A DNA stretch of 32,000 nucleotides from contig CP001848.1 in NCBI GenBank assembly GCA_000025185.1, positions 2,490,001 to 2,522,000 of the forward strand. The letters run 5' to 3'. Position numbers and translations under genes: made by a program. The stretch comes from Pirellula staleyi DSM 6068. Lineage in GTDB: Bacteria > Planctomycetota > Planctomycetia > Pirellulales > Pirellulaceae. Within the stretch, counting starts at the first letter, position 1. Every line of letters starts with the position of its first letter. Under the pieces are notes generated by a model, which did no database searches, was not told the origin of the DNA, and saw only the letters and a list, made by a program, of their open reading frames with translations. Shown here in pieces: positions 1,869-25,801 of the stretch.

Positions 1869-3248
1869 TTAGTACGTTCTGGTTTCGGGCTCGCGCGACC
1901 AATTCGCCAGCCGCATTCCGATGCCAATCACGGCGACGATACCGATGCCAGCAAACATCCCGGCGTAGACCACCCAGGAAGGGATGCCGCTATCGATCCA
2001 AAAATCGGCGGTGTGCGCGTCCCACCACTCGGCACCGCAACTCTTGCATTTGCTCCCCTTCGTCTGATTCTTGTTAAGGTCCACCTCGGCCGGAGTGAGG
2101 CACTTGGTGCACACACCCTGCTCGCGACCGTGTCGCATAACTACAAAAACGATCGGGTAGTCCTTGTAGCGTTCTTGCATCGCCTTCACTTCCAAGTCGT
2201 CCGTCGATTCATTCATGCCGGGCGACATCGGGCTGCCATAAGGTGCTGGCATCACCGGGGTAGGCATGCTCGGTGGACTGAAGTTCGAGGGGGGCATCGA
2301 CGGTGGACTTCCCGACGAGAGCCCGCTGGGAGGTGTATAAGGAGCGGGCGGCGTGTAAGGAGGTGGGCTGAACCCTGGATTTCCGCTTGGAATCGACGAA
2401 CTTTCCTCAGGCCGCGTAGGCATTTCAAACGGAGGTGGCGTGAACGAGGGTGTTGTGGGAGGAACGACGCCGGGGATGCTGCCGTCGGGATTCGGCATCG
2501 GGGCAATCGGCGCTGGATCGAAGTTTGGGGTCAGTGGCAACGGTGGCGGTGTAAAGCCTGGGCCAACACCCGGGCCAGGGATTCCGCCAGGGCCGGGCAT
2601 CGCTCCAGGACCAGGCACACTGGGAACACCAGGGAAACTGGGGGCTCCTGGAATTGCACCGGGATTAACACCAGGGTTCATGCCCGGATCGATTCCCCCC
2701 GCGCCACCAATCGAGTTCTCGGCTGGAAGAGCAGCGAGGGCAGCTTCGTCGCCGCGATCGGCGAGCATCTGCCGCACGTAAGCTCGGTCGTCGGGACTAA
2801 GGTTAATAAACGGGATCTTGGTCACGCGCGAGGCACGCTGCAGCACCACCTCGGGACCTACGACACGCAAGAACTTGGCCGTCAGCTTATTTCCTTGCGT
2901 GTCGGTCCATTCGCGCGACGTGGCAGTCGTCGACTTCGGCTTTTTCGTGCTCGAGGCCTCGTCGTCGTCGCTCGAATCACCGGCTGGCGTGGTGGTTCCA
3001 GAGGCCAAATCGCGGATCACCTGCTGATCCTCCTCGGAAAACCGGGTGATCGGTAAAGTGATCTCTTTCCCTTGGAAAATGAACGTGACATCGTCGCCGC
3101 TCGAGCGCACAAACTCGGCCTGCATCGTGCGGCCATCGGCGGAGGTCCAGGTCCGTTCCTCGGCGGCTGTCGAGGCCACCAGTACCAAAACGCAAAGCAG
3201 GGCAAGGCTGCGGGACTTGGCCAGACGTTTCAGTACGAGGGCGTTCAT
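1869..3248 (-). CDS. Exported SHD1-repeat, P/G-rich, Cys4 and C-terminal TM-anchored protein
   Basis: 459-aa ORF with a signal-peptide-like N-terminus (LALLCVLVLVASTAAEE). Two SHD1-like modules: RTWTSADGRTMQAEFVRSSGDDVTFIFQGKEITLPITRFSEEDQQVIRDL and REWTDTQGNKLTAKFLRVVGPEVVLQRASRVTKIPFINLSPDDRAYVRQML. These are followed by about 170 aa of P/G-rich low complexity (about nt 2250..2720), CTKC-x17-CKSC, and a TM helix IPSWVVYAGMFAGIGIVAVIGIGM with a short tail. Confidence 0.85.
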   Translation of the reverse strand: MNALVLKRLAKSRSLALLCVLVLVASTAAEERTWTSADGRTMQAEFVRSSGDDVTFIFQGKEITLPITRFSEEDQQVIRDLASGTTTPAGDSSDDDEASSTKKPKSTTATSREWTDTQGNKLTAKFLRVVGPEVVLQRASRVTKIPFINLSPDDRAYVRQMLADRGDEAALAALPAENSIGGAGGIDPGMNPGVNPGAIPGAPSFPGVPSVPGPGAMPGPGGIPGPGVGPGFTPPPLPLTPNFDPAPIAPMPNPDGSIPGVVPPTTPSFTPPPFEMPTRPEESSSIPSGNPGFSPPPYTPPAPYTPPSGLSSGSPPSMPPSNFSPPSMPTPVMPAPYGSPMSPGMNESTDDLEVKAMQERYKDYPIVFVVMRHGREQGVCTKCLTPAEVDLNKNQTKGSKCKSCGAEWWDAHTADFWIDSGIPSWVVYAGMFAGIGIVAVIGIGMRLANWSREPETRTY

Positions 3249-3604: not shown

Positions 3605-3686
3605 GGCCACTTGGTGAAATTGGCAGACACGCAGGATTTAGGTTCCTGTGCCGCAAGGCGTCGGGGTTCAAGTCCCCGAGTGGCCA
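3605..3686 (+). tRNA. tRNA-Leu (anticodon UAG), type II with long variable arm
   Basis: Cloverleaf folded by hand. Acceptor GGCCACT (3605-3611) pairs with AGTGGCC (3679-3685). The D stem is 3 bp (GTG/CAC) with an 11-nt loop. Anticodon stem CAGGA/TCCTG; loop TT-TAG-GT with the anticodon at 3639-3641. Variable arm TGCCGCAAGGCGT; T arm CGGGG-TTCAAGT-CCCCG; discriminator A3686. CCA is not encoded. Confidence 0.93.
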
Positions 3687-3748
3687 CTGCTCGAGCGCTC
3701 TTGCTGGGGGCGATGCTTGATGTTTTCAGCTCGGACCCACGAGCCGGT

Positions 3749-5284
3749 TCACGGCTGACGCTCCAGCTCCAAGCGAAACTGCATCACACCCCCGCCGATC
3801 AACACGCGGCTGACGGTCCCGTCCTCGTTAAGTCGCTCAAGAGATCTTGTTTCCCCTTCGGCTGAAACCAGGCAGTTCATTCGCCTATTGTCTAGCGTGC
3901 AAACGAACTCTCGTCGCACCGCACCACTCGGCGAGCGTTTGTTCGACGAGAACTTCAGCGAGCTCTCTTCCCAGCGAACATTGGTTGCTATCTCGCCAGC
4001 GACGGCTCCGGTCGACATCTCTTCCCAGATCGAAACCGCAAATACGCCGTTCTCTTCTTCGATCGAAAGACGCTGAATCGATCCCGGCTGGATGTTGAGG
4101 TTCCTCCATTCGCCAGCATAGGGATGGGGCGGCACCACCGGTTCGGTACCGTCGCTGAAAAGCAAACAGCCTCCGATGCCCAGCAGCAGCATCAAAGCGA
4201 TGGCAGCAACCACATAGAGCCACCAGCGTCGCCCAGCAGGAGGTGCTGGTGGCTGCGAAGTGGCTATCGAAGGAGCGAGCGATTTGGCTTGAGGGGCATG
4301 GCTACGAAGCAAGCGAAACACGCCAGGAACAAACGCTTGTCGCTCGGAAGTTTCGCCGATCATCGCAACAAAACAGCCGAGCGATGTATCGCCAAGTTCT
4401 TCGCTGATGGCATGAAAGGCTAGTCCCGTTTTGGCGAGAAGCGAGCGTTTCTCGGCGATACCACGAATCTTGATCGAGAGGGCAATGAGCGCACGGTTGC
4501 GGACATCGATCGCTTCACCCGTAATTGCCTCTTCGGGACCAATCAAACTTTGATGGATTTGATTCGGTAACTCGACACAGAAGAGGTTTTCGAGCGATTC
4601 CGATAAGAACTCGATAGCCTGCTTGGTCGATGATAGACGAGGAATCACCCACTCATATCCGAGGCAATTTGCCCGTAGTTCTGAAGTCGATCGCTTCGCC
4701 AGAACAGGTCCGCCGCGATAGCTTTCAAGGCCGTAGAGCACTATTGCTAGCCAGCAGTTCACCTGCAGTGTTTCGCGTAGCGCGATGAGTTCCAGTCGAA
4801 AGTCGTTCTTCAGTCGTCGTCGATCTGTGGAAGGTTCTGCACCGGCATTGCTCCACAAAGATTCCCCAGCAATCCAAACTGCGACCCCACTAGCCGCAGG
4901 CAATTTTCCGCGCGAGCGGCGGAGCAATTTGCCAAGTTGTCGCAAATCGGCAGTTGCATCTTCGGCGGACGCTTCGCTGTTTCCATGCCAGAACAGGTAG
5001 TGTGCATGATTGGCCGATTTGCGATGTCCGGTGGCAATGGTGAATCGAGTTGCGGGGTTCTCAGCGACTGGCTGATCGACCGTGAGGTCGGCCGAAGCCA
5101 TCAAACTGACGATGGAGTTCCGCTCGATTCCTAGGATGAGGAACAGATGGCAGTCCGTGATGGAGCGCCCTTGCTGCTCCAGCGTTTCGAGGGCTGTTTT
5201 CCATTCGCTATCGAGCGAGATTGATTTGCTGGGAATGGGGGAGGAGGTCGCCGGAGAAGTCGAAGCAGCCATGGATGAGTTCAA
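3749..5284 (-). CDS. IcmF/TssM-like N-terminal NTPase-fold protein with degenerate P-loop, single TM helix and ~130-aa C-terminal extracytoplasmic domain
   Basis: 511-aa ORF. By-eye alignment to the TssM cytoplasmic NTPase region gives four matches. TDCHLFLILGIERNSIVSLMASADL aligns with LPWYvIGppGSGKTTaLlNSGL. LGKLLRRSRGKLPAASGVAVWIAGESLW aligns with FLdLLkkhRprrPlNGVivaiSlsDLL. RLELIALRETLQVNCWLAIVLYGLESYRG aligns with RiqELyerLgirfPVYvlfTKcDlvaGF. LGYEWVIP aligns with WGFTFP. Walker A GxxGxGKT is replaced by GIERNSIV (nt 5108..5155). The TM helix is RRWWLYVVAAIALMLLLGIGGCLLF (about nt 4150..4235). Confidence 0.5.
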   Translation of the reverse strand: MNSSMAASTSPATSSPIPSKSISLDSEWKTALETLEQQGRSITDCHLFLILGIERNSIVSLMASADLTVDQPVAENPATRFTIATGHRKSANHAHYLFWHGNSEASAEDATADLRQLGKLLRRSRGKLPAASGVAVWIAGESLWSNAGAEPSTDRRRLKNDFRLELIALRETLQVNCWLAIVLYGLESYRGGPVLAKRSTSELRANCLGYEWVIPRLSSTKQAIEFLSESLENLFCVELPNQIHQSLIGPEEAITGEAIDVRNRALIALSIKIRGIAEKRSLLAKTGLAFHAISEELGDTSLGCFVAMIGETSERQAFVPGVFRLLRSHAPQAKSLAPSIATSQPPAPPAGRRWWLYVVAAIALMLLLGIGGCLLFSDGTEPVVPPHPYAGEWRNLNIQPGSIQRLSIEEENGVFAVSIWEEMSTGAVAGEIATNVRWEESSLKFSSNKRSPSGAVRREFVCTLDNRRMNCLVSAEGETRSLERLNEDGTVSRVLIGGGVMQFRLELERQP

Positions 5285-5391
5285 TCAGTTGGATCATGCA
5301 GCCAGTGCGGAAGAAAACGCAAAAGAGTGTTGAGTCGCGTGAATCGAGCGGAACGGACTTTAATGTTTCAAGGGGATCAGAGTGTGAGCCC

Positions 5392-6168
5392 TTACCGCCG
5401 CGAATGCTCGCAATGACGAATCAGAATTTCGCCCCCGGGAAACGTTTGTTCCTCGGGAAGATGTATTTGGGACGAGCCATCGACGAGAGCACGGACGCGG
5501 CGTGTCCAGCGCGCGGGAGGTTCGCGTCCATCGGGAATGAGTTCGACCGGGAAGGTGGAACCAAAACCGAGGTCGACGCACAGGAGGTAAACCTCGAGCG
5601 CCTCGAAGTGACGCAGGGATTCGGTCAGCTGAGCTTGCTCCCAGAATCGTTCTGCGCGAGCAGGGGCCCCGAAGAACATCCCTTCGAGCGGCATCTCGAT
5701 CCAGCGCAATTGCCAGCGAGTACTGGCGTTGCTCAAAAGGTCGTCAATCCAGCAGACAATGGCGTAGCGAATGCCTAGCTGACGCTCGTCGAAAGCTGCT
5801 TCGGGATCGAGTCCATGATCGATAGCAATCAGATTTCCGAGGAGCGGACCGACTTGAGTTTGGGCATGCTCGATCTCGGCCCGAATGGCAGCTTCGTAGG
5901 CCGTTCGCAGGAGTGTGGCTTGCCGCGGTGAGTCGGCAAAATGCGTTGCAATCGACTTTGTCAAAGTTTCGCGACTGACTGTCCGCTGCAGCACTTGCGC
6001 CAGCTCGTCGATGACAAGTGGATCGACCGATTTACCTGCCAGCGCTTGCTGCAAAGCGGGTGTGAAATCGAGATCGGTGAAGACCGGCTCGCTTGATTCG
6101 AGCTTATCGAGCCAACCCCACGTGAGCTCCAAAATGGGATAGAGGGCGTCGAGTACGGAGGCTTGCAT
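5392..6168 (-). CDS. DotU (TssL cytoplasmic domain)-like protein lacking the usual C-terminal TM anchor
   Basis: 258-aa ORF. IRYAIVCWIDDLLSNASTRWQLRWIEMPLEGMFFGAPARAERFWEQ ... ALEVYLLCVDLGFGSTF (signature at about nt 5540..5610) matches the DotU pattern aRYALCAllDEavlnT.WG...W...sLl..ffg...gGe.FF..l......LLEvyylCLaLGFeGrY. No hydrophobic helix follows the signature. Confidence 0.55.
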   Translation of the reverse strand: MQASVLDALYPILELTWGWLDKLESSEPVFTDLDFTPALQQALAGKSVDPLVIDELAQVLQRTVSRETLTKSIATHFADSPRQATLLRTAYEAAIRAEIEHAQTQVGPLLGNLIAIDHGLDPEAAFDERQLGIRYAIVCWIDDLLSNASTRWQLRWIEMPLEGMFFGAPARAERFWEQAQLTESLRHFEALEVYLLCVDLGFGSTFPVELIPDGREPPARWTRRVRALVDGSSQIHLPEEQTFPGGEILIRHCEHSRR

Positions 6169-6385
6169 AGCAAACGCTTTCAGCCACCAGAACTCTCACC
6201 AGTCGCTGGAATGTCCACGACTGTTTTGCGAGCTGATAGCGGACGCATTCTAGTGTGAGCTAGCGGCCGAACTCAAACAAATCTGACATTCGGCAGCAAG
6301 ATTTTTTCAGCACTAATAGCGGGGTAATTGCCAGCCTACTGGTGGCAACAGCTCCTCGATGGGTGAGTCTGCTGCCAGCTACTCG

Positions 6386-15382: not shown

Positions 15383-18300
15383 CTAAAGTTTGCTGACGAT
15401 GGCCGCGAGATTCTTTTCGAGTCGCTGCACCGAAACCGGGATGCTGGTGCCGAGCTCTTGGGCGAACAGCGATACACGCAGCTCTTCGATGCTATAGCGA
15501 AACTCTTCGAGTGCTGCTGGCGCAGTTCCTTGTGCCCGCTCGCGCTCGACACGCTCACTCCACGACTTTTGGAGCTTTTCGACCCCGGCAAAGTTTTGCT
15601 TGTCGCGCGCTAGTCCCCCTGCGAGAAGTTTTCGCAAACGAGCCGAAATTCCCTGGAAATAGCGAGGAAACTGGAGCAGCCAGTTCCAAGGGGTTGCGGC
15701 GAGAAAGCCATCGGGGGTCAGCATCGCGAGCTGAGCTTTCACATCGGCCAAGGCGTAAGCAGCTGTCGATAATTTGAACTGTTCGATCCCTAGCCGCGCC
15801 TGATGGTAGGCCTCAAACAGGAGAGGCAAAAGTTTAGCAACATCTTGCGCTGCTGCTGGAAGATGCTTGGTCGCCATGCTGATATGCAGCTTGTACGTAT
15901 CGGCCGAGCGCGGCAAATCGGGATAGCCCATCGCGAGCGCGCGGCTCGCAATCAGCAGCTGAAGTTGATCGTCGAGAGGAAACTTGCTGCAGAGCGGCGC
16001 CGACCACATCCGCAGCTTCGCCAGTTGAGGCAGCCAGCTCACGTGGCCACGAATCTCGCGGTTCTGCTCGATCGCAAGGAAGCGGCGCATCCCGCCGCGC
16101 GAGAGGGCTTCGGCTTGCAGTGGTGTCTCAGCCAGTTGCAGTGAAACGGAGTCGCCGTCGTCGACAATTGCTGGATAACGTGCGAGTTTCACGCCACCTG
16201 CCGTGGTGACGACCTCGCTCGGCAGGTCGCCGAATGTCCACGACTTGAGCTTCGACTGGCTCCAGCGTCCCGACGTTGCAACAGGAGCAGCGGCAGCTGC
16301 AGCCGGTCCTGCGACAGCTTTCACTTCGGTCCACTCGCGCGACGCGGTGATCACCTTCCCTTCCGCATCTTTCACCCGCACGTTCATCGCCAAGTGAGGC
16401 GGTAGGCGAGTGAGATCGAACGAATCGGCTTCGATTCGATCTCCGGTATGCGATGCCAGCTTAGTGGCCAGCACTTGAAGCAGTCGACCTTCAGCGAAAC
16501 GAAGTGTGCTGGCGATCTCGCGCGCGACCTGGGGCGCGGGGATGATTTTTCGGCGAATATCCTTCGGAAGTGTCCGAATGAGCGCCTCGATCTTCTCGGC
16601 CAAGAGCCCCGGAACGAGCCATGCCAAACGCTCTGCCGAGAGGTGCGAAACCGCAGCGGCGGGAACTTCCACCGTCACTCCATCGGACTCGGTTCCGGGT
16701 TCGAAGTGATAGGCCAGCGGGAGCGATGCGCCGGGAACTTCGAGTTTGTCGGGATACTTGGTTTTCACATCCCGCTCGATCTCGTCGTCGAGCAGGTCGT
16801 TCATCGTCAGCTGAAGCGTTTTACGTTCGAGGTTGGTGGCTTTGTTCCACCAGCGCTCGAGCGAATTCATATCGATCACCTCGCGCGGCAATCTTTTCCC
16901 GTAAAAGTCGACCAGCTTTTGCGGATCGATCACGAGGTCGCGACGTCGTGTTTTGGCGGCGAGTCGAGCGATCTCTTCGAGCACTTTTTCGTTGTCGCGC
17001 ACCACCGCTGGCTTACGCGGCAGCAGACCTGCTGCGAGACCTTGCTCGATGAACAGTTCGCGCGCGGCACTCGGATCGATCGGCGCGAGTGGCACAGGTC
17101 GATCAGCGGCGAGCGTCAGACCAGCGAGGACGAGTCGCTCGCTCGCCATCGCCTGGCCCCGTTTCTCGCTCCAGCGATAGTCGCTGTAATGTTTGTTGAT
17201 GAGATGCAGGGCCAATTCTTCCAGCCACTCGGGCTGAATACGGGCGACGCTTCGCGCAAATTTTCGCGAGGTCTCGACTAGTTCGGCCGCAACGATCCAT
17301 GCGGGGCGTGAGTGCTGCACGCCACTACCGGGCCAGAGAAAGTATTTTTGACCGCCGCAGGCTTGATACTCCGACGTATCGGTGCGTCGCGCGATGCTCG
17401 TGAGCAAACCTGTGAGGAGTGCGCGATGTATCGCCAGGTAAGCCGGAGACTCGACCCGCGAGGCTTCGTTTTTCGAGCCCCGACCAGGTTGACGACCACG
17501 CTGCGGAGTGCGCCCCGTTGGCTGCTGCTGCAATTCCTCTTCGTGATCGTGGGGGGGCGGAATTTGCGGCGAAATTCGTTTGCCCACCTGCAGGCCTTGC
17601 TCGGTTGCCATCTCGAGTAGTTGGCGATGCACATCCTGCCATTCGCGCACACGTGGCTCGGAGAGGAAATTTCGCTGCATCGCCATTCGCAGCTGACCGC
17701 GCGAGAGTTTCTCTTTGAGACCGTGTAGAAAATCCCACAGATGGAGCCAGCTTAAAAAGTCGCTGTCGGGGTCGCTCCACTGCGCATGAGCGGCGCTCGC
17801 TTCCTGCGCTTTATCGCTGGGCCTGTCACGTGGATCTTGCACCTCGAGCGCTGCTGCGATGATCAGCACATCGGCCAGCGCATGTTCGGCGCTGGCCGCG
17901 AGCAGCATTCGCGCGATCGAGGGATCGACCGGCAGCCGCGCGAGTTTGAGACCCAGCGGAGTGAGCTCGCGCTTGTCGTCGATCGCTTGCAGTTCAAAGA
18001 GAGTTTTGAATCCATCGCGGATCGCCTCGCTTCGCGGCACATCCAGCAGAGGAAACTCCTCGAGCGGACCGAGATCCAGCGCCAGGGACTGAAGCAGCAC
18101 AGCAGCCAGATTGGTCCGCTGAATTTCGGGCGAGGTGAAAGGATCGCGTGACTGAAAGTCTTCCTCGCCGAAGAGCCGAACGCAAATGCCTGGTGCGATG
18201 CGACCGCAACGTCCCGCGCGCTGATTGGCCGATGCTTGCGAGATGCGCTCGATCGGTAATCGCTGGACTTTACTGCGCGGTGAATAGCGGCTGATGCGGG

Positions 18301-20545: not shown

Positions 20546-23392
20546 CTAGCGGATTCGGAGTCCGATGGGAAGCGACTCGCCAAAGACATGACGTTGTTGC
20601 AGCGAGTCAAGGTCTCCCCCTTGCTCGACGAGTTTCAAACTCTCGTCCGAAGCGCCACTGGCGGTGAGCTGAGCAGCGATTGTCGTGCGTAGTGCTCCGC
20701 TGATATCGCGAAATCGATCGTCGGTTTTTCGGGCGAGCTGAACGATCGCTAGTTGCAGTGGAACATCGAGTGGCGCGGTCGCTAGAAGTTTCTCAAGCCA
20801 GGTTGCGACTTCACTGGCGGGGAGCACCGTGTTGAGAGGGCCGTAGACTGGAACGCGGCTCCCGAGTCGGCCGATGCTCCAGGCCAGTGCTGCGCGGATG
20901 TTGGCGAGCTTGGGCCGACCGAGTAGTTCGAGGAACATCTGACCCAGGGTGATTTTGGTCGGGACATCTAGTAGTTCGAGCGATCCGACGAGCCTCACGA
21001 GTTCAATCGACTCGTGAGGCGAGAGCATCGGTTCGCTCGATTTGCCCGCCGATGTGGCCCGCTTATGAAAGGCTTTGAGCGTGGTGAGCATCGGCTGCGA
21101 GATCGCTTTTTGCTGACCAGCGGTGAAGCCTCCCGCAATGCGGCGCCACAAAATGAGGGACTCGGTGCGGCTGGTCGGAACACCATGCGCTAGTTTGCCA
21201 TGCACGAGTTTCCATGTTTCAGCTACACGCCAGTCGTCGACCGCCAGACCATACCCGGGGCGAAGTGCATAGCCAAGCAGATTGAGCCAGCGCGCTTCAT
21301 GCGCGGGCGAACGTCGTCGTCCCTCTTCGAGAGCGATGAGCGCCTCCCAAATGCGGCGCAAAAGCGAAGTGGGCCACTGCTCGCGATCGCTTCCAGCTGC
21401 TTCGACAAGTCGTTTGATCAGGCTGTCGGGGTGCTCGCGTCCTGTTCCAAACGTTCCCTCGAGTACGCTGTAAATCGCTTTCCAAGCGGATTCTTCGATA
21501 AAACCTTGCGCTTCAGCGGCCGATTCGTGCGCTTCAGCATCGGTTTCGGTGGCGGAGCGAACATCGAACTCAAGCCGCCACTGACGTTCTCCTTCGGCTT
21601 CACTGCACCACAGTTCGAGCGTGCCGATTTCGGTCAGCAGCACGTTGAGATGCACGGCAATCGTGCCACGCTCGCCGCGCGTGCGCGTTTTGAGGGCGGT
21701 TCGAATGGGTGGAAGCGCCGACATCTGTTCGGGATCGATCGGCAGCACCTCTCCCGCGCGATCAGCGAGTCGCAAGCTCGAAACGAAGAGTGGAAACTGA
21801 GCAGGCTGCGAGACCAAAAGCTCGAGCGCAGGCTGCTTGAGCGTAATGGTTTCACCCGGCTGTGCGCTACCCGGTACGAGGCAGATCGCTTGCGGCGGTG
21901 TCCCTTCGAGGCCGAGGTAATAGGAGCGGGCCAAACTTGCAGCGATCTTGACCCCGAGACCACGACGTACGAGTCCGTAGTAGGCTGCCCCGCGCGCCAC
22001 GGCGAGATCGAGTCGGTCGTTGTCGAGCAGACGAGGCTGCCAAGGTGTGGCACGATCGCCGGTGAACCACTCGCCGATCGTTTCGAGCAAACGGCTGACC
22101 AGCAGCGGCGAGCTGAAAACGCCACCGTTAAGGAGCACGAGGTCGGGCTTAGCGGGGTCGAGTGGTGGAGTTGGTATCGCTTGGGGATCTGCTGGCGGAT
22201 CGACGTCGGCATAGCGATGCCGCGCAAGGAACTGGGCTAAGTAGCGCGTGATGGCTGGGTCGGCTGCATAAGGGAGACCAAACTCCTGAAAACCGCTACG
22301 TCGCGCTTGAGGCCGCGCATCGCGGGGGACTTTCGGAAAGAAACCTTCGACCAATAAGGTCGCCGCTTCGTCGCGCGTAATCGTTGTTTGCAGCGAGCCA
22401 CCAATCAGTCGCGAACCACCCGAGGCGATGCTAATGGTGCGCTCGGTGGGGCTCGCTTGGCTAAGGAGTTCTTCTTTCGATGATCGGCTCGCGCGCAGCA
22501 GTGTGTCCCACTGACGAGCGTCGAGCCCTTTGGTCGCTGCGAGCTTTTCTTCGAGGTGCTTCGCTAGTGCGAGATCAAAATTGTCGCCGCCGAGGATCAA
22601 GTGGTCGCCGACCGCGATGCGATGCAGCTGAATCTGTCCCGTCTCATCCTGGCGAACTCGAATGAGGGTGAAGTCGGTCGTGCCACCACCGACGTCGCAG
22701 ATCAAGATTTTCTGACCGACCTTCAGCTCTGCCTGCCAGGTGTCGCGATGCTTGGCGATCCAGGCATAAAAAGCTGCTTGCGGTTCTTCGAGCAGGACGA
22801 CGCGCGGAAGTCCGGCACGCTGCGCTGCGCTGATCGTCAGTTCGCGAGCTACTTCGTCGAACGAAGCGGGAAGCGTCAAGACAATCTCTTGCTCTTCGAG
22901 TGGGGCCCCTTTGAACTGGTGATTCCACGCCGCGCGAATGTGAGCCAGGTAGCGGCTGCTCGCTTCGACGGGAGACATGCGCTCGACATCGGGGGCCGCT
23001 TGCCAAGGGAGGACATCGGCGAGCCGATCGACACCGCGGTGACAGAGCCACGATTTGGCCGACGAAATGACCCGTCCCGCCGAGATCGCGCCAGCATCGC
23101 GGGCCATCGCACCGACGATCGGCTGGGAATCGTCGTTCCACGGAAGTTTGCCGAGTGCCGCGCGATCGGCAGCGGGCTGATAGAGGAACGATGGGAGGGT
23201 GTCGAGTTTTTCGACGACATTGGCTGCGGTGAACTGTGGGATCGCGAGGACCTCGACGCGCGATGTATTGCGCTCGCAATCGACGTAGCAGACAGCGGAA
23301 TTCGTGGTACCCAGATCGATACCGACGACGTAGCGGCTAGGGGCTCGCTCGAGCGAAAGTTCGTCAGTCGTAGGTCCACCAAGCGCGCTCAC
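20546..23392 (-). CDS. Atypical Hsp70-family ATPase, long form (NBD + non-canonical beta-rich domain + ~330-aa C-terminal extension)
   Basis: 948-aa ORF with a GTG start at 23392..23390; no in-frame ATG precedes the NBD. Motifs: VVGIDLGTTNSAV, LLEEPQAAFYAW, CDVGGGTTDFTLIRV, LLNGGVFSSP. Shared paralog signature: GTLELWCSEAEGERQWRLEFDVR (about nt 21560..21625). Confidence 0.85.
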   Translation of the reverse strand: MSALGGPTTDELSLERAPSRYVVGIDLGTTNSAVCYVDCERNTSRVEVLAIPQFTAANVVEKLDTLPSFLYQPAADRAALGKLPWNDDSQPIVGAMARDAGAISAGRVISSAKSWLCHRGVDRLADVLPWQAAPDVERMSPVEASSRYLAHIRAAWNHQFKGAPLEEQEIVLTLPASFDEVARELTISAAQRAGLPRVVLLEEPQAAFYAWIAKHRDTWQAELKVGQKILICDVGGGTTDFTLIRVRQDETGQIQLHRIAVGDHLILGGDNFDLALAKHLEEKLAATKGLDARQWDTLLRASRSSKEELLSQASPTERTISIASGGSRLIGGSLQTTITRDEAATLLVEGFFPKVPRDARPQARRSGFQEFGLPYAADPAITRYLAQFLARHRYADVDPPADPQAIPTPPLDPAKPDLVLLNGGVFSSPLLVSRLLETIGEWFTGDRATPWQPRLLDNDRLDLAVARGAAYYGLVRRGLGVKIAASLARSYYLGLEGTPPQAICLVPGSAQPGETITLKQPALELLVSQPAQFPLFVSSLRLADRAGEVLPIDPEQMSALPPIRTALKTRTRGERGTIAVHLNVLLTEIGTLELWCSEAEGERQWRLEFDVRSATETDAEAHESAAEAQGFIEESAWKAIYSVLEGTFGTGREHPDSLIKRLVEAAGSDREQWPTSLLRRIWEALIALEEGRRRSPAHEARWLNLLGYALRPGYGLAVDDWRVAETWKLVHGKLAHGVPTSRTESLILWRRIAGGFTAGQQKAISQPMLTTLKAFHKRATSAGKSSEPMLSPHESIELVRLVGSLELLDVPTKITLGQMFLELLGRPKLANIRAALAWSIGRLGSRVPVYGPLNTVLPASEVATWLEKLLATAPLDVPLQLAIVQLARKTDDRFRDISGALRTTIAAQLTASGASDESLKLVEQGGDLDSLQQRHVFGESLPIGLRIR

Positions 23393-23395
23393 GCG

Positions 23396-25183
23396 TTAGT
23401 TCTCCGCGTCGTCGCGCACGCTGAATTCGAGTTTCCAGCGAGACTGATTTTTGGTTCCCACGCACCACAGTTCGAACACACCGAGCTCGGTGATGTGCGA
23501 CTGAAATTTCACCGGCACGTAGTCGTCGTCCATCGATTCTTCGCGCGCGAGCATCGTCTCGAGCGAATCGGTTTCGGCGATCTCGTCGTCGCTCCAATGC
23601 GTGACAAGTTCGCCCACAGCATCTTGCTTGCGCGTGGCTGAACTGAAAAAACGAAACGTCGCTTGCTCGCCTACCACCAGTCCGATTTCGCCCGAGGGAA
23701 CATCAGCCGTATTCCCTTCTTCCATTCCAAACGGAACGACACAAAGCGCGCGCAGCGGGCGCGGCTGACCTGGAATTGCTAAGCCCGATGATTCAATCCC
23801 GACGTAATAGCTGCGGGCTGTTCCACCCCGAATGCGAACGCCGCCGTGCAGTTTGGCCCAGCCGTAGTAAGCAGCGCCTCGCGCCACGCTGTGATCGAGA
23901 TCGTGAACGCCATCAAGAACGCGCGGCGGTGCATCGGGAGACCACTCGCCAATTACTTCCATCAAGCGATCGCGGAAAATCGGTGACTTAAATACGCCAC
24001 CGTTGAATAGTACGTGCGAAGGGCGAACCGGTTGCCCGTTGCTGCCGTGAGCTGTGAGGAACGCCGCGAGATGACGCGTGACAGCGGTGTCGGATTCAAA
24101 CGGCAGACCAATCTCTTGAAAGCCCGACATACGGCGCTTTTGCGGACGGTCGCTCGCCGAGCATTTGGGAAAGAAACCTTCGAGCAGCAACTGAGCGGCT
24201 GATTGTTTTTCGAGATCGATCGACACCGTGCCACCGATCAGTTTGCTGCCACGACCAAGAACACTCAAAGGATGCGTTTCAGCACCTCCGGGAGCGAGCA
24301 GCGCTTCTTTCGCTTGGCGACACATGTGCCATAGCGAAACGCTTTGCCAAGGGTCGAGCTTCACGTTCTTTTTGGCAAACTCTTCCGATGCGTGGAAGGC
24401 GAGGGCGAGATCCATGTTGTCGCCACCCACCAGCAGATGGTTGCCCACTGCGATGCGTCGCAGCACAAGCTCACCATTTTCTTCAGCGACACCAACGAGA
24501 GTGAAGTCGCTTGTGCCACCACCGACGTCGCAAACCAGCAGCGATTCTCCTACCTTCACACTGCGACGCCAGCGTTCTCCCATGGAGGTCAGCCACGCAT
24601 AGACAGCTGCTTGCGGTTCTTCGAGAAGGATCAAGTTCGCTGGCAGTCCCGCTGCGAGAGCTGCCTCGCGCGTTAGTTCACGAGCCGCCGCATCAAACGA
24701 AGCGGGAACGGTAAGAACGACAATCTGTTCGGCCAGCGGCGCGTCTGGAAACTTCTCCGACCAGATGCTCACCAGATGTTCTAGATAGCGGCGCGAAGCT
24801 GTGACCGGCGAAACCTTGGCGACCTCGGCTGGCGCTTGCCAAGGCAAGATCGGCTGATGGCGGTCGACCTTGCTGTGACAGAGCCAGCTCTTCGCGGCAG
24901 CCACGCTGCGCGTCGGATTTTCGGCCGAGAGTCTCCGAGCAATTTCACCAACGACATAGCCCGCCGGAGCTGCTCCGGGCATCGCATACGCAGGGGACTC
25001 TGCCTCGCCAGGAGGTGGTAAATAGAGGAATGACGGGAGCGAGCTGCGCGGCTCGACCACACCAGCTGCCACCAGCTGCGGAATCTCGAGAAGCTGAACG
25101 TCCGGCTTCTCGGTGCCGAGGTCGGCATAGGCGAGCACGCTGTTCGTGGTTCCGAGGTCGATGCCGATCACAAACTTGCTCAA
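23396..25183 (-). CDS. Atypical Hsp70-family ATPase, short form (NBD + non-canonical beta-rich C-terminal domain)
   Basis: 595-aa ORF with a TTG start at 25183..25181. The in-frame upstream codons back to the TAA at 25240..25238 contain no ATG, GTG or TTG. Motifs: FVIGIDLGTTNSVL, LLEEPQAAVYAW, CDVGGGTSDFTLVGV, LFNGGVFKSP. It ends GVFELWCVGTKNQSRWKLEFSVRDDAEN. Confidence 0.88.
   Translation of the reverse strand: MSKFVIGIDLGTTNSVLAYADLGTEKPDVQLLEIPQLVAAGVVEPRSSLPSFLYLPPPGEAESPAYAMPGAAPAGYVVGEIARRLSAENPTRSVAAAKSWLCHSKVDRHQPILPWQAPAEVAKVSPVTASRRYLEHLVSIWSEKFPDAPLAEQIVVLTVPASFDAAARELTREAALAAGLPANLILLEEPQAAVYAWLTSMGERWRRSVKVGESLLVCDVGGGTSDFTLVGVAEENGELVLRRIAVGNHLLVGGDNMDLALAFHASEEFAKKNVKLDPWQSVSLWHMCRQAKEALLAPGGAETHPLSVLGRGSKLIGGTVSIDLEKQSAAQLLLEGFFPKCSASDRPQKRRMSGFQEIGLPFESDTAVTRHLAAFLTAHGSNGQPVRPSHVLFNGGVFKSPIFRDRLMEVIGEWSPDAPPRVLDGVHDLDHSVARGAAYYGWAKLHGGVRIRGGTARSYYVGIESSGLAIPGQPRPLRALCVVPFGMEEGNTADVPSGEIGLVVGEQATFRFFSSATRKQDAVGELVTHWSDDEIAETDSLETMLAREESMDDDYVPVKFQSHITELGVFELWCVGTKNQSRWKLEFSVRDDAEN
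23402..23405 (-). promoter_or_regulatory. Shine-Dalgarno-like GGAG, 9 nt upstream of the GTG start of the long Hsp70-like gene (inside the 3' end of the upstream gene)
   Basis: The minus strand reads gcGGAGaacTAAcgcGTG. Confidence 0.4.
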
Positions 25184-25192
25184 GGTGCCAAT

Positions 25193-25196
25193 CTCC
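25193..25196 (-). promoter_or_regulatory. Shine-Dalgarno-like GGAG, 9 nt upstream of the TTG start of the short Hsp70-like gene
   Basis: The minus strand reads tcgccGGAGattggcaccTTG. Confidence 0.4.
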
Positions 25197-25237
25197 GGCG
25201 AATAGGGACGAGAACGGGGCGCAAGAAGTGCAGCCGC

Positions 25238-25801
25238 TTACTTGGTTTCCACTTCTGCAGGAGCGATCACTTTGGCAGCCGCTGCGGAACCGGTGTAGGT
25301 TGGCAAGTTGGTCGACTTTGCCTCCCACCCACCATGCACCAGTGTTCCTTCGAGTGCGGCCGTCGCTCCCAAACTTCCCACCACTTTGTACCGACCTGGA
25401 TCGTAGCCCGGCGGAACGCTGACCGTCGAACCCTCTTCACCAGCCGCGATCCGCTGGAGGGAAAAGAGCCGATCGAGGACAGCCGCCGAGTCCTTCAGAA
25501 CCCCCCGAGCAGCGGCTCCGATTTGGGCATCGGAATAGTCAGATAAAGGCTCTTGGATCAGATCCACCAGACGAGCTTCGCGCTGCAGCGTAGCTAAAAG
25601 TGCAATCGCATCACTCTGAAGTGGGGTTTTGGGCTCGGGTTTAGGGGCCGGTGTCGATGTTGCAGAATGCTGCTGCGTTTTCCCTTGCTCGGTGACTTTT
25701 GGCAACATGTTGCCTTGGAGCGCCGTGGCGACACGACCGGCAGTATCGCCGCTCGCTAGGCATTTAAAAAAAGCTGCAAAGGCAGTAGAGATTCGTCCCA
25801 T
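25238..25801 (-). CDS. DUF2760 domain-containing protein
   Basis: 187-aa ORF. N-terminus MGRISTAFAAFFKCL. Core: SDAIALLATLQREARLVDLIQEPLSDYSDAQIGAAARGVLKDSAAVLDRLFSL ... EEGSTVSVPPGYD ... GTLVHGGWEA. This fits my memory of the DUF2760 consensus (LQreGRlvDFl.ed...ysDaqvGAAaR.vh ... h.GW.a). Confidence 0.75.
   Translation of the reverse strand: MGRISTAFAAFFKCLASGDTAGRVATALQGNMLPKVTEQGKTQQHSATSTPAPKPEPKTPLQSDAIALLATLQREARLVDLIQEPLSDYSDAQIGAAARGVLKDSAAVLDRLFSLQRIAAGEEGSTVSVPPGYDPGRYKVVGSLGATAALEGTLVHGGWEAKSTNLPTYTGSAAAAKVIAPAEVETK

Follow-up and report, generated by a model that had tools for sequence, protein, structure and literature searches.

In the type VI secretion systems (T6SS) of Proteobacteria (T6SS-i), TssM is a protein of ~1100 amino acids (aa) with three transmembrane (TM) helices and, in many systems, a nucleoside triphosphatase (NTPase) site carrying a Walker A motif. 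Its large periplasmic domain binds TssJ and spans the envelope, and TssL is anchored in the membrane. The IcmF of Legionella resembles TssM over its full length and has a periplasmic domain; it is accompanied by a membrane-anchored DotU and a large regulon of Dot/Icm, a type IVB secretion system (T4BSS). Francisella (T6SS-ii) has a divergent DotU and an IcmF-like protein, PdpB, without Walker A, in an atypical system. The Francisella pathogenicity island has been discussed as atypical (Boyer 2009, PMC2660368), and a preprint assigns the T6SS-related components of Legionella to polar targeting and assembly of the Dot/Icm T4BSS (bioRxiv 10.1101/315721). Here we describe two adjacent open reading frames (ORFs), ORF A and ORF B, on the minus strand of a 32-kb window (the whole stretch of DNA analyzed) from Pirellula staleyi DSM 6068. 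An earlier note on this DNA had read them by eye as a DotU-like and an IcmF-like gene. Both ORFs are indeed there, and both proteins score over the Pfam cut-offs of these families. As far as sequence can tell, the pair descends from the tssL-tssM module of planctomycete T6SS, and it is not an independent conserved two-component system. Our favored explanation, to which we give a probability of about one half, is that the pair is a lineage-specific, topologically remodeled descendant of that module, most likely one that gives T6SS components encoded elsewhere an accessory or alternative anchor.

ORF A matched Pfam DotU (PF09850) with an E-value of 1.1e-10 and 41.9 bits, where the gathering cut-off is 27. 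The match joins aa 129-230 of the protein to no more than positions 52-153 of the 205-position profile. ORF A carries the RYAIVCWIDDLL ... ALEVYLLCVDLGFGSTF string quoted in the earlier note, and its DotU core motif reads RYAIVCWIDDLL..W..PLE..FF..RFW..EALEVYLLCVDLGF. It fell below the NCBIfam naming cut-offs, scoring 31.5 versus 89.95 bits for TIGR03349 and 17 versus 180 bits for T6SS_TssL_short. Aligning ORF A with 16 TssL proteins from planctomycete T6SS clusters (alignment A5), we found that it retains the N-terminal TssL helix motif plus the invariant core, whose columns read YA..W.DD...W...LE...F...F....ALEV..C..LGF. Identity to planctomycete TssL was 26-33% overall, and 35-45% over 70-107 aa of the DotU core (E-values 1e-8 to 1e-11). 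Compared with these proteins, ORF A has a 34-aa N-terminal extension and two insertions, and it terminates exactly where the C-terminal TM anchor of planctomycete TssL starts. No TM anchor was detected in ORF A; its peak 19-aa hydropathy of 1.48 lies below the TM-like range. The A5 profile matched the solved TssL/DotU structures 6y4r (2.2e-11), 4v3i, and 3u66. With ORF A alone, a phmmer search of the PDB gave marginal TssL matches, and a single-sequence AlphaFold model was unusable, with a predicted local distance difference test score (pLDDT) of 44.

ORF B matched Pfam IcmF-related_N (PF14331) with an E-value of 1.6e-18 and 67.4 bits (cut-off 25). The match runs over aa 108-314, about 207 aa, and so bears out the ~200-aa alignment with the TssM module that had been proposed by eye. 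Nothing else in Pfam was matched at E-values up to 10. The periplasmic IcmF-related and IcmF_C families (PF06761 and PF06744), which the earlier note had suggested looking for along with DotU and the N-terminal family, were thus absent from ORF B, and no NCBIfam TssM model matched it. We found a single TM-like segment, at aa 358-376, with a hydropathy peak of 2.72. Its flanks carry net charges of +2 (N-terminal) and -2 (C-terminal), which predict an N-in/C-out orientation. The chance that ORF A and ORF B merely resemble DotU and IcmF is excluded at the level of sequence, because the profile scores exceed the cut-offs and the two partner families are adjacent: the ORF B gene starts 107 bp downstream of ORF A on the same strand, so that a DotU-like gene adjoins a TssM/IcmF-like partner.

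An AlphaFold model of ORF B, built on the family alignment, had a mean pLDDT of 75, with the cytoplasmic part mostly at 85-94. In order, the model shows an alpha/beta domain, long helices (aa 20-335), the TM helix, and a beta-rich domain of ~135 aa. A helix at 350-376 spans the TM segment, and the beta strands at 391-476 have pLDDT values of 55-70. Foldseek comparison of the model with the PDB gave weak matches (best E-value 7e-4), nearly all of them P-loop GTPases such as G-alpha, GIMAP7, Toc34, FeoB, and Arf/Rab. The Walker A pattern [GA]xxxxGK[ST] is absent from ORF B, and the corresponding strand and loop read LFLILGIERNSIVSLM. No PDB entry was recovered by phmmer with ORF B, and a profile of its short relatives (described below) was likewise without a solved relative. 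Taken together, ORF B is a single-pass inner-membrane protein with a dead NTPase site, and ORF A lacks an anchor. The C-terminal 135-aa domain had no Pfam match. We also considered whether it arose by fusion with c5, the small protein whose gene follows canonical tssM, and rejected this idea, as neither BLAST nor profile hidden Markov models revealed any similarity.

When either ORF was used as query in a word-indexed homologue search, nothing came back beyond the protein itself or a 99% copy. Performing an exhaustive HMMER search with ORF B against 1.84 billion representative proteins (E-value <= 1e-3), we obtained 28 matches: ORF B itself, a 196-aa fragment (P0007), and 26 TssM-type proteins of a short form. 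The latter are ~250-670 aa long, most of them 440-620 aa, and the best has an E-value of 1.9e-8 at 28% identity. By phmmer against 27 members, ORF B gave E-values from 1.9e-8 to 8e-4, at 23-31% identity for the full-length members; compared with the canonical planctomycete short TssM, its identity is 21-28%. The similarity covers the cytoplasmic domain and the third TM helix, TM3 (alignments A1 and A4). The short TssM begins with two TM helices, continues with a conserved FPDID..AW..PLFLVLG segment and the IcmF_N region, and ends with TM3. All 26 aligned short TssMs matched PF14331 and none has Walker A. The lack of Walker A and of a periplasmic IcmF domain is therefore common to the whole short-TssM family and is not specific to P. 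staleyi. Two features set ORF B apart in alignment A1. The columns of the N-terminal TM hairpin are empty for ORF B, and past TM3 the P. staleyi protein alone continues, for 135 aa.

The short TssM is mostly encoded in tssK-tssL-tssM modules. Scanning one genome per GTDB species, we recovered 164 short-TssM relatives, of which 80 loci were kept. Nearly all are labeled Planctomycetota, mainly Pirellulales and Planctomycetales; the other labels are one Candidatus Nealsonbacteria and one 'bacterium'. Gene order was derived from ORF clustering, with Pfam annotation of one Bythopirellula sp. chromosome (OZ245849, locus L030) as a check. It runs from tssK (T6SS_VasE) through tssL (full-length DotU, 93 bits), short tssM, a small helical protein, and a sigma-70-family factor to tssA (ImpA_N), tssB (VipA), tssC (VipB, often in two copies), tagJ (ImpE), tssE (gp25), and tssF, and some loci also have Hcp. 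Among the 74 loci with enough upstream sequence, tssL adjoins short tssM in 68 and tssK is adjacent in 66. The earlier note had held that the phylum is not known for T6SS. These loci contradict that view, and Rhodopirellula baltica has been on the T6SS list since 2009 (Boyer 2009, PMC2660368; also PMC5394234). Where at least 8 kb was available on both sides, tssB/C lay within 10 kb of short tssM in 24 of 36 loci, and the tssKLM module was isolated in the other 12. Split T6SS loci are thus normal in Planctomycetota. In every split locus, tssK accompanies tssL-tssM.

Several observations on these loci deserve mention in their own right. Every planctomycete T6SS cluster recovered (L002-L081, e.g. 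L030:10001-11584) encodes a short TssM of ~520-560 aa ending at TM3. The 10-kb flanks of the short-TssM loci showed no TssJ-like gene, and we found no literature on short TssM in planctomycetes. A TssM without a periplasmic domain, and with no TssJ in sight, raises the question of how the planctomycete T6SS crosses the periplasm and the outer membrane. This observation is possibly more useful than the P. staleyi pair itself. Between tssM and tssA, about 40 of the 80 loci encode a ~135-aa helical protein without a Pfam match followed by the sigma-70-family factor (L030:11541-12673); the two may form a dedicated sigma/anti-sigma-type regulator of the T6SS. Many clusters have tandem TssC (VipB) paralogues after a single TssB (L030:14802-16298 and 16462-18027). 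The locus labeled Candidatus Nealsonbacteria, of the candidate phyla radiation (L032, JABMRB010000793.1), is a complete planctomycete-type tssK-L-M-A-B-C-E-F locus and is most likely a mis-binned planctomycete contig.

We then compared the tssL/tssM junction. Where P. staleyi has the spacer between its two genes, canonical loci encode the TM anchor of TssL followed by the TM1-TM2 hairpin of TssM. The 107-bp spacer retains a TM-like segment in no reading frame. A recent frameshift hiding the TssL anchor there was accordingly rejected, as no frame of the spacer is hydrophobic. In canonical loci the three TM segments missing here lie side by side at this junction, so that one rearrangement could have removed them all.

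How widely does this arrangement occur? The sole other complete copy was found on a 4.3-kb metagenome contig (L001), whose DNA is 99% identical and in which DUF1501, ORF A, and ORF B follow one another as in the window. Apart from this copy, the only other TssM-like sequence of the P. staleyi type found, and a more distant one, is fragment P0007 (L082:1-702, Logan ERR7850096). The contig start truncates its ORF, leaving the C-terminal end, and the next gene encodes a short-chain dehydrogenase; T6SS genes do not follow. As in ORF B, a TM helix leads into the beginning of an extension, at 28% identity over 167 aligned positions by BLASTP and 42% over a 72-residue HMMER match. Two scans of JGI metagenome contigs yielded no relatives of the P. 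staleyi type. By these comparisons, the pair is a long-branch, lineage-restricted derivative. The earlier note had proposed that the pair, if conserved, would be an undescribed two-component system. Neither the search of 1.84 billion representatives nor the two metagenome scans, which were empty, revealed such conservation, and this proposal fails. Its other suggestion, a minimal repurposed TssL/TssM-derived module or a relic, holds in part: the derivation from TssL/TssM is supported by the Pfam, A5, and structure profile matches, and the idea of a conserved new system is not.

The 99% contig also allowed us to check the constraint on the genes. Relative to the window, the synonymous and non-synonymous differences were 9 and 0 in DUF1501, 5 and 2 in ORF A, and 10 and 8 in ORF B. 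The spacer had two substitutions and one 1-bp indel, as expected of non-coding DNA. Against a neutral expectation of ~3 non-synonymous to 1 synonymous, and with counts that are small, the non-synonymous fraction is low in both ORFs, which points to purifying selection, relaxed in ORF B. Both ORFs are full-length and uninterrupted in the two strains. Since the ORFs are intact and the differences mostly synonymous, the pair is probably functional, though weakly constrained.

The favored explanation requires T6SS parts elsewhere in the chromosome. Nothing in the window supplies them. The earlier note was right that no other T6SS or T4BSS gene accompanies the pair: we detected no further family of either system in the other large ORFs of the 32 kb, and the stretches free of T6SS genes that flank the pair measure 3.7 kb and 26 kb. 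Genome-wide surveys gave divided answers. The T346Hunter tables list one T6SS-like cluster in the P. staleyi chromosome (NC_013720), where a cluster means at least 4 core genes within 70 kb. TXSScan, with a quorum of 11 of 14 components, reports zero T6SS in P. staleyi (PMC4793230, Tables S3 and S7). The same tool gives zero for R. baltica despite the many T6SS genes there, so that its zero for P. staleyi is weak evidence. The window holds just two core components; the T346Hunter cluster is therefore most probably another region, or one that extends past the window. In a search for TssC homologues, the 120 closest database clusters were at least 77% identical, and the P. staleyi chromosome was not among the matches listed. 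The literature on T6SS in P. staleyi offered count tables, and we found no gene lists.

How might the remodeled pair work? ORF B would tether ORF A, its soluble DotU-like partner, to the inner membrane on the cytoplasmic side. The tethered pair could then reproduce the TssL-TssM docking surface, which in canonical T6SS recruits TssK and the baseplate. The outward-facing 135-aa beta-rich domain may contact a periplasmic or envelope partner. With its NTPase dead, the pair would act as a scaffold and not as an energizer, most likely for T6SS components whose genes lie in another part of the P. staleyi chromosome. Counting for this explanation are the Pfam matches of both proteins, the short-TssM relatives with their T6SS gene order, the alignment of ORF A with planctomycete TssL and its conserved DotU core, the family-wide lack of Walker A, the GTPase-like fold of the ORF B model, the intact ORFs in two strains with their low non-synonymous fraction, the split tssKLM loci of the phylum, and the T346Hunter cluster. 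Other observations weigh against it. The pair lacks the tssK that is present in 66 of 74 related loci; all three TM segments of the tssL/tssM junction are gone; TXSScan finds zero T6SS in P. staleyi; and the constraint on ORF B is relaxed, with 8 of 18 differences non-synonymous compared with 0 of 9 in DUF1501. The near-restriction to one lineage fits a dispensable function.

Some of these observations also suit a relic, that is, a remnant of tssK-tssL-tssM that lost tssK and the TM junction, has no role, and is drifting to loss. We consider this rather unlikely. It accommodates well the loss of tssK, of the TssL anchor, and of the TssM TM1-TM2 hairpin, for the TM part of which one rearrangement could account. 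The very long branch (the best short-TssM match is 28% identical), the confinement essentially to one lineage, the score of ORF A under the NCBIfam cut-off, and the 8 non-synonymous to 10 synonymous differences of ORF B, as against 0 to 9 in DUF1501, all point the same way. However, a decaying remnant would hardly keep both ORFs full-length and uninterrupted in two strains, and the synonymous changes are the more numerous. Despite the divergence, conservation persists in the DotU core motifs and in the columns of IcmF_N. ORF B also has a new C-terminal domain that is predicted to fold, which is not expected of decay. Moreover, a more distant organism (P0007/L082) has the same TM-plus-extension arrangement.

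The pair might instead have been repurposed as a signaling or localization scaffold independent of T6SS, by analogy with the co-option of DotU/IcmF in Legionella. This is distinctly unlikely in our judgment. Such a role would agree with the remodeled topology and the new outward-facing domain, with the lack of any T6SS gene within 3.7 kb and 26 kb of the pair, and with the zero T6SS that TXSScan gives for the genome. A precedent for DotU/IcmF as polar targeting factors outside T6SS has been reported (bioRxiv 10.1101/315721). On the other hand, there are no conserved partner genes, the neighbors being the DUF1501 gene and a tRNA, and the scarce phylogenetic spread gives no sign of a successful new system. 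The same chromosome has a T6SS-like cluster according to T346Hunter, and isolated tssKLM modules are ordinary in the split planctomycete T6SS. Less probable again is an exaptation in which a soluble DotU protein would be held by a dead single-pass TssM pseudo-GTPase whose beta-rich domain senses or binds the envelope, independently of any sheath. If true, this would be the second re-use of TssL/TssM outside T6SS after the Legionella T4BSS. Least likely of all, P. staleyi would have a split T6SS with sheath and baseplate genes elsewhere and with this pair as its only TssL/TssM, which would fit a T346Hunter count of 1 against a TXSScan count of 0 (a sheath/baseplate module lacking nearby L/M; the zero is little informative, given that R. 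baltica also scores 0) and the separation of tssKLM from tssB/C in 12 of 36 planctomycete loci, but split loci keep tssK with tssL-tssM and this pair has none, a working T6SS is expected to conserve the anchor, and the extreme divergence with three TM losses contrasts with a TssC identity of at least 77% across the 120 closest database clusters listed.

The features of the two-gene unit are collected in Table 1.

Table 1. Positions of the ORF A/ORF B pair and adjoining features in the 32-kb window.
Feature	Position	Strand	Remarks
ORF A, soluble DotU/TssL-like protein	5392-6168	-	258 aa; Pfam DotU
DotU core of ORF A (aa 129-230)	5479-5784	-	Pfam match coordinates
Intergenic spacer, 107 bp	5285-5391	.	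between ORF A and ORF B
ORF B, TssM-like single-pass membrane protein	3749-5284	-	511 aa; Pfam IcmF-related_N
ORF B cytoplasmic domain (aa 20-335)	4280-5227	-	GTPase-like alpha/beta fold and helical IcmF_N region; AlphaFold, Foldseek
ORF B sole TM helix (aa 358-376)	4157-4213	-	predicted N-in/C-out; hydropathy, flank charges
ORF B extra C-terminal beta-rich domain, 135 aa	3752-4156	-	predicted outward-facing; alignment and model
Sigma-70-like promoter match, ~80 bp upstream of ORF A	6247-6276	-	weak
tRNA-Leu	3605-3687	+ (opposite strand)	ARAGORN; downstream boundary of the two-gene unit

ORF B is identical (100%) to Psta_1942, whose annotated start lies 12 nt downstream and gives a protein of 507 aa. 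Its UniRef name is type VI secretion system component, so the T6SS label is already public. The promoter match near ORF A is at chance level (1 site versus 0.9 expected in shuffles). The tRNA-Leu gene abuts the 3' end of the ORF B gene, and tRNA genes are frequent sites of integration and rearrangement; its proximity may be relevant to the isolation of the pair. It stands between the pair and a gene (1869-3248, minus strand) for a protein of 459 aa. Its N-terminus is signal-like, and two SHD1 (SLA1 homology) domains, an extended Pro-rich linker, a CxxC...CxxC motif, and a C-terminal TM helix complete it.

The gene upstream of the pair, DUF1501, is unrelated to it. The remaining ORFs of the window are typical of planctomycetes: besides DUF1501, they encode a YdcZ-type exporter, a ThuA/HEAT/cytochrome c giant protein, Maf, a deacetylase, HrpA, an RmlD-like enzyme, an Hsp70-like trio, and a cadherin/Ig giant protein. 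PADLOC returned zero defense-system matches on the window. The trio (20546-25801, minus strand) comprises a DUF2760 protein and two Hsp70-like proteins, the second of which ends in a DUF3731 ('DnaK-related') domain. The set resembles a conserved non-canonical Hsp70 module.

For now, the P. staleyi pair counts as an oddity restricted to its lineage. If functional, it would show how far the TssL-TssM docking module can shrink and yet persist, stripped of the NTPase, the TssL anchor, the TM hairpin, and the periplasmic channel. It would then be a natural minimal construct for studies of the TssL-TssM cytoplasmic interface.

How does the pair compare with the known systems? The TssJ-TssL-TssM complex of the proteobacterial T6SS-i has in common with it the DotU and IcmF-related_N domains and the adjacency of the genes. 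Unlike that system, ORF B has one TM helix, no Walker A, and no periplasmic IcmF domains, and ORF A is unanchored. In Legionella, the Dot/Icm DotU-IcmF pair is used outside a contractile system, which means that the module is re-usable. Here, however, the window is without T4BSS genes, and the closest relatives of the P. staleyi proteins belong to T6SS, not T4BSS. The Francisella DotU and PdpB lie in a complete island with sheath and baseplate homologues, whereas the P. staleyi pair has no such context, and our HMMER search with ORF B detected no specific sequence affinity to them.

The closest sequence relatives of both ORFs are the planctomycete TssL and the short TssM, for example those of L030. 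Gene order and the DotU core motifs are common to the planctomycete tssL-tssM and the pair. The short TssM and ORF B have in common the 'LFLxLG' strand without Walker A, IcmF_N, and the TM helix, and neither has an IcmF-related/IcmF_C periplasmic domain. The departures are as clear. The canonical planctomycete TssL is ~215 aa long with a C-terminal TM helix, whereas ORF A has 258 aa and is soluble. The canonical short TssM has an N-terminal TM hairpin and stops right after TM3, whereas ORF B has lost the hairpin and gained 135 aa. The planctomycete tssL-tssM is preceded by tssK and usually lies near tssA/B/C/E/F, and the P. staleyi pair has neither context. In summary, the pair is a variant of TssL/TssM, neither a bona fide TssL/TssM nor a new system.

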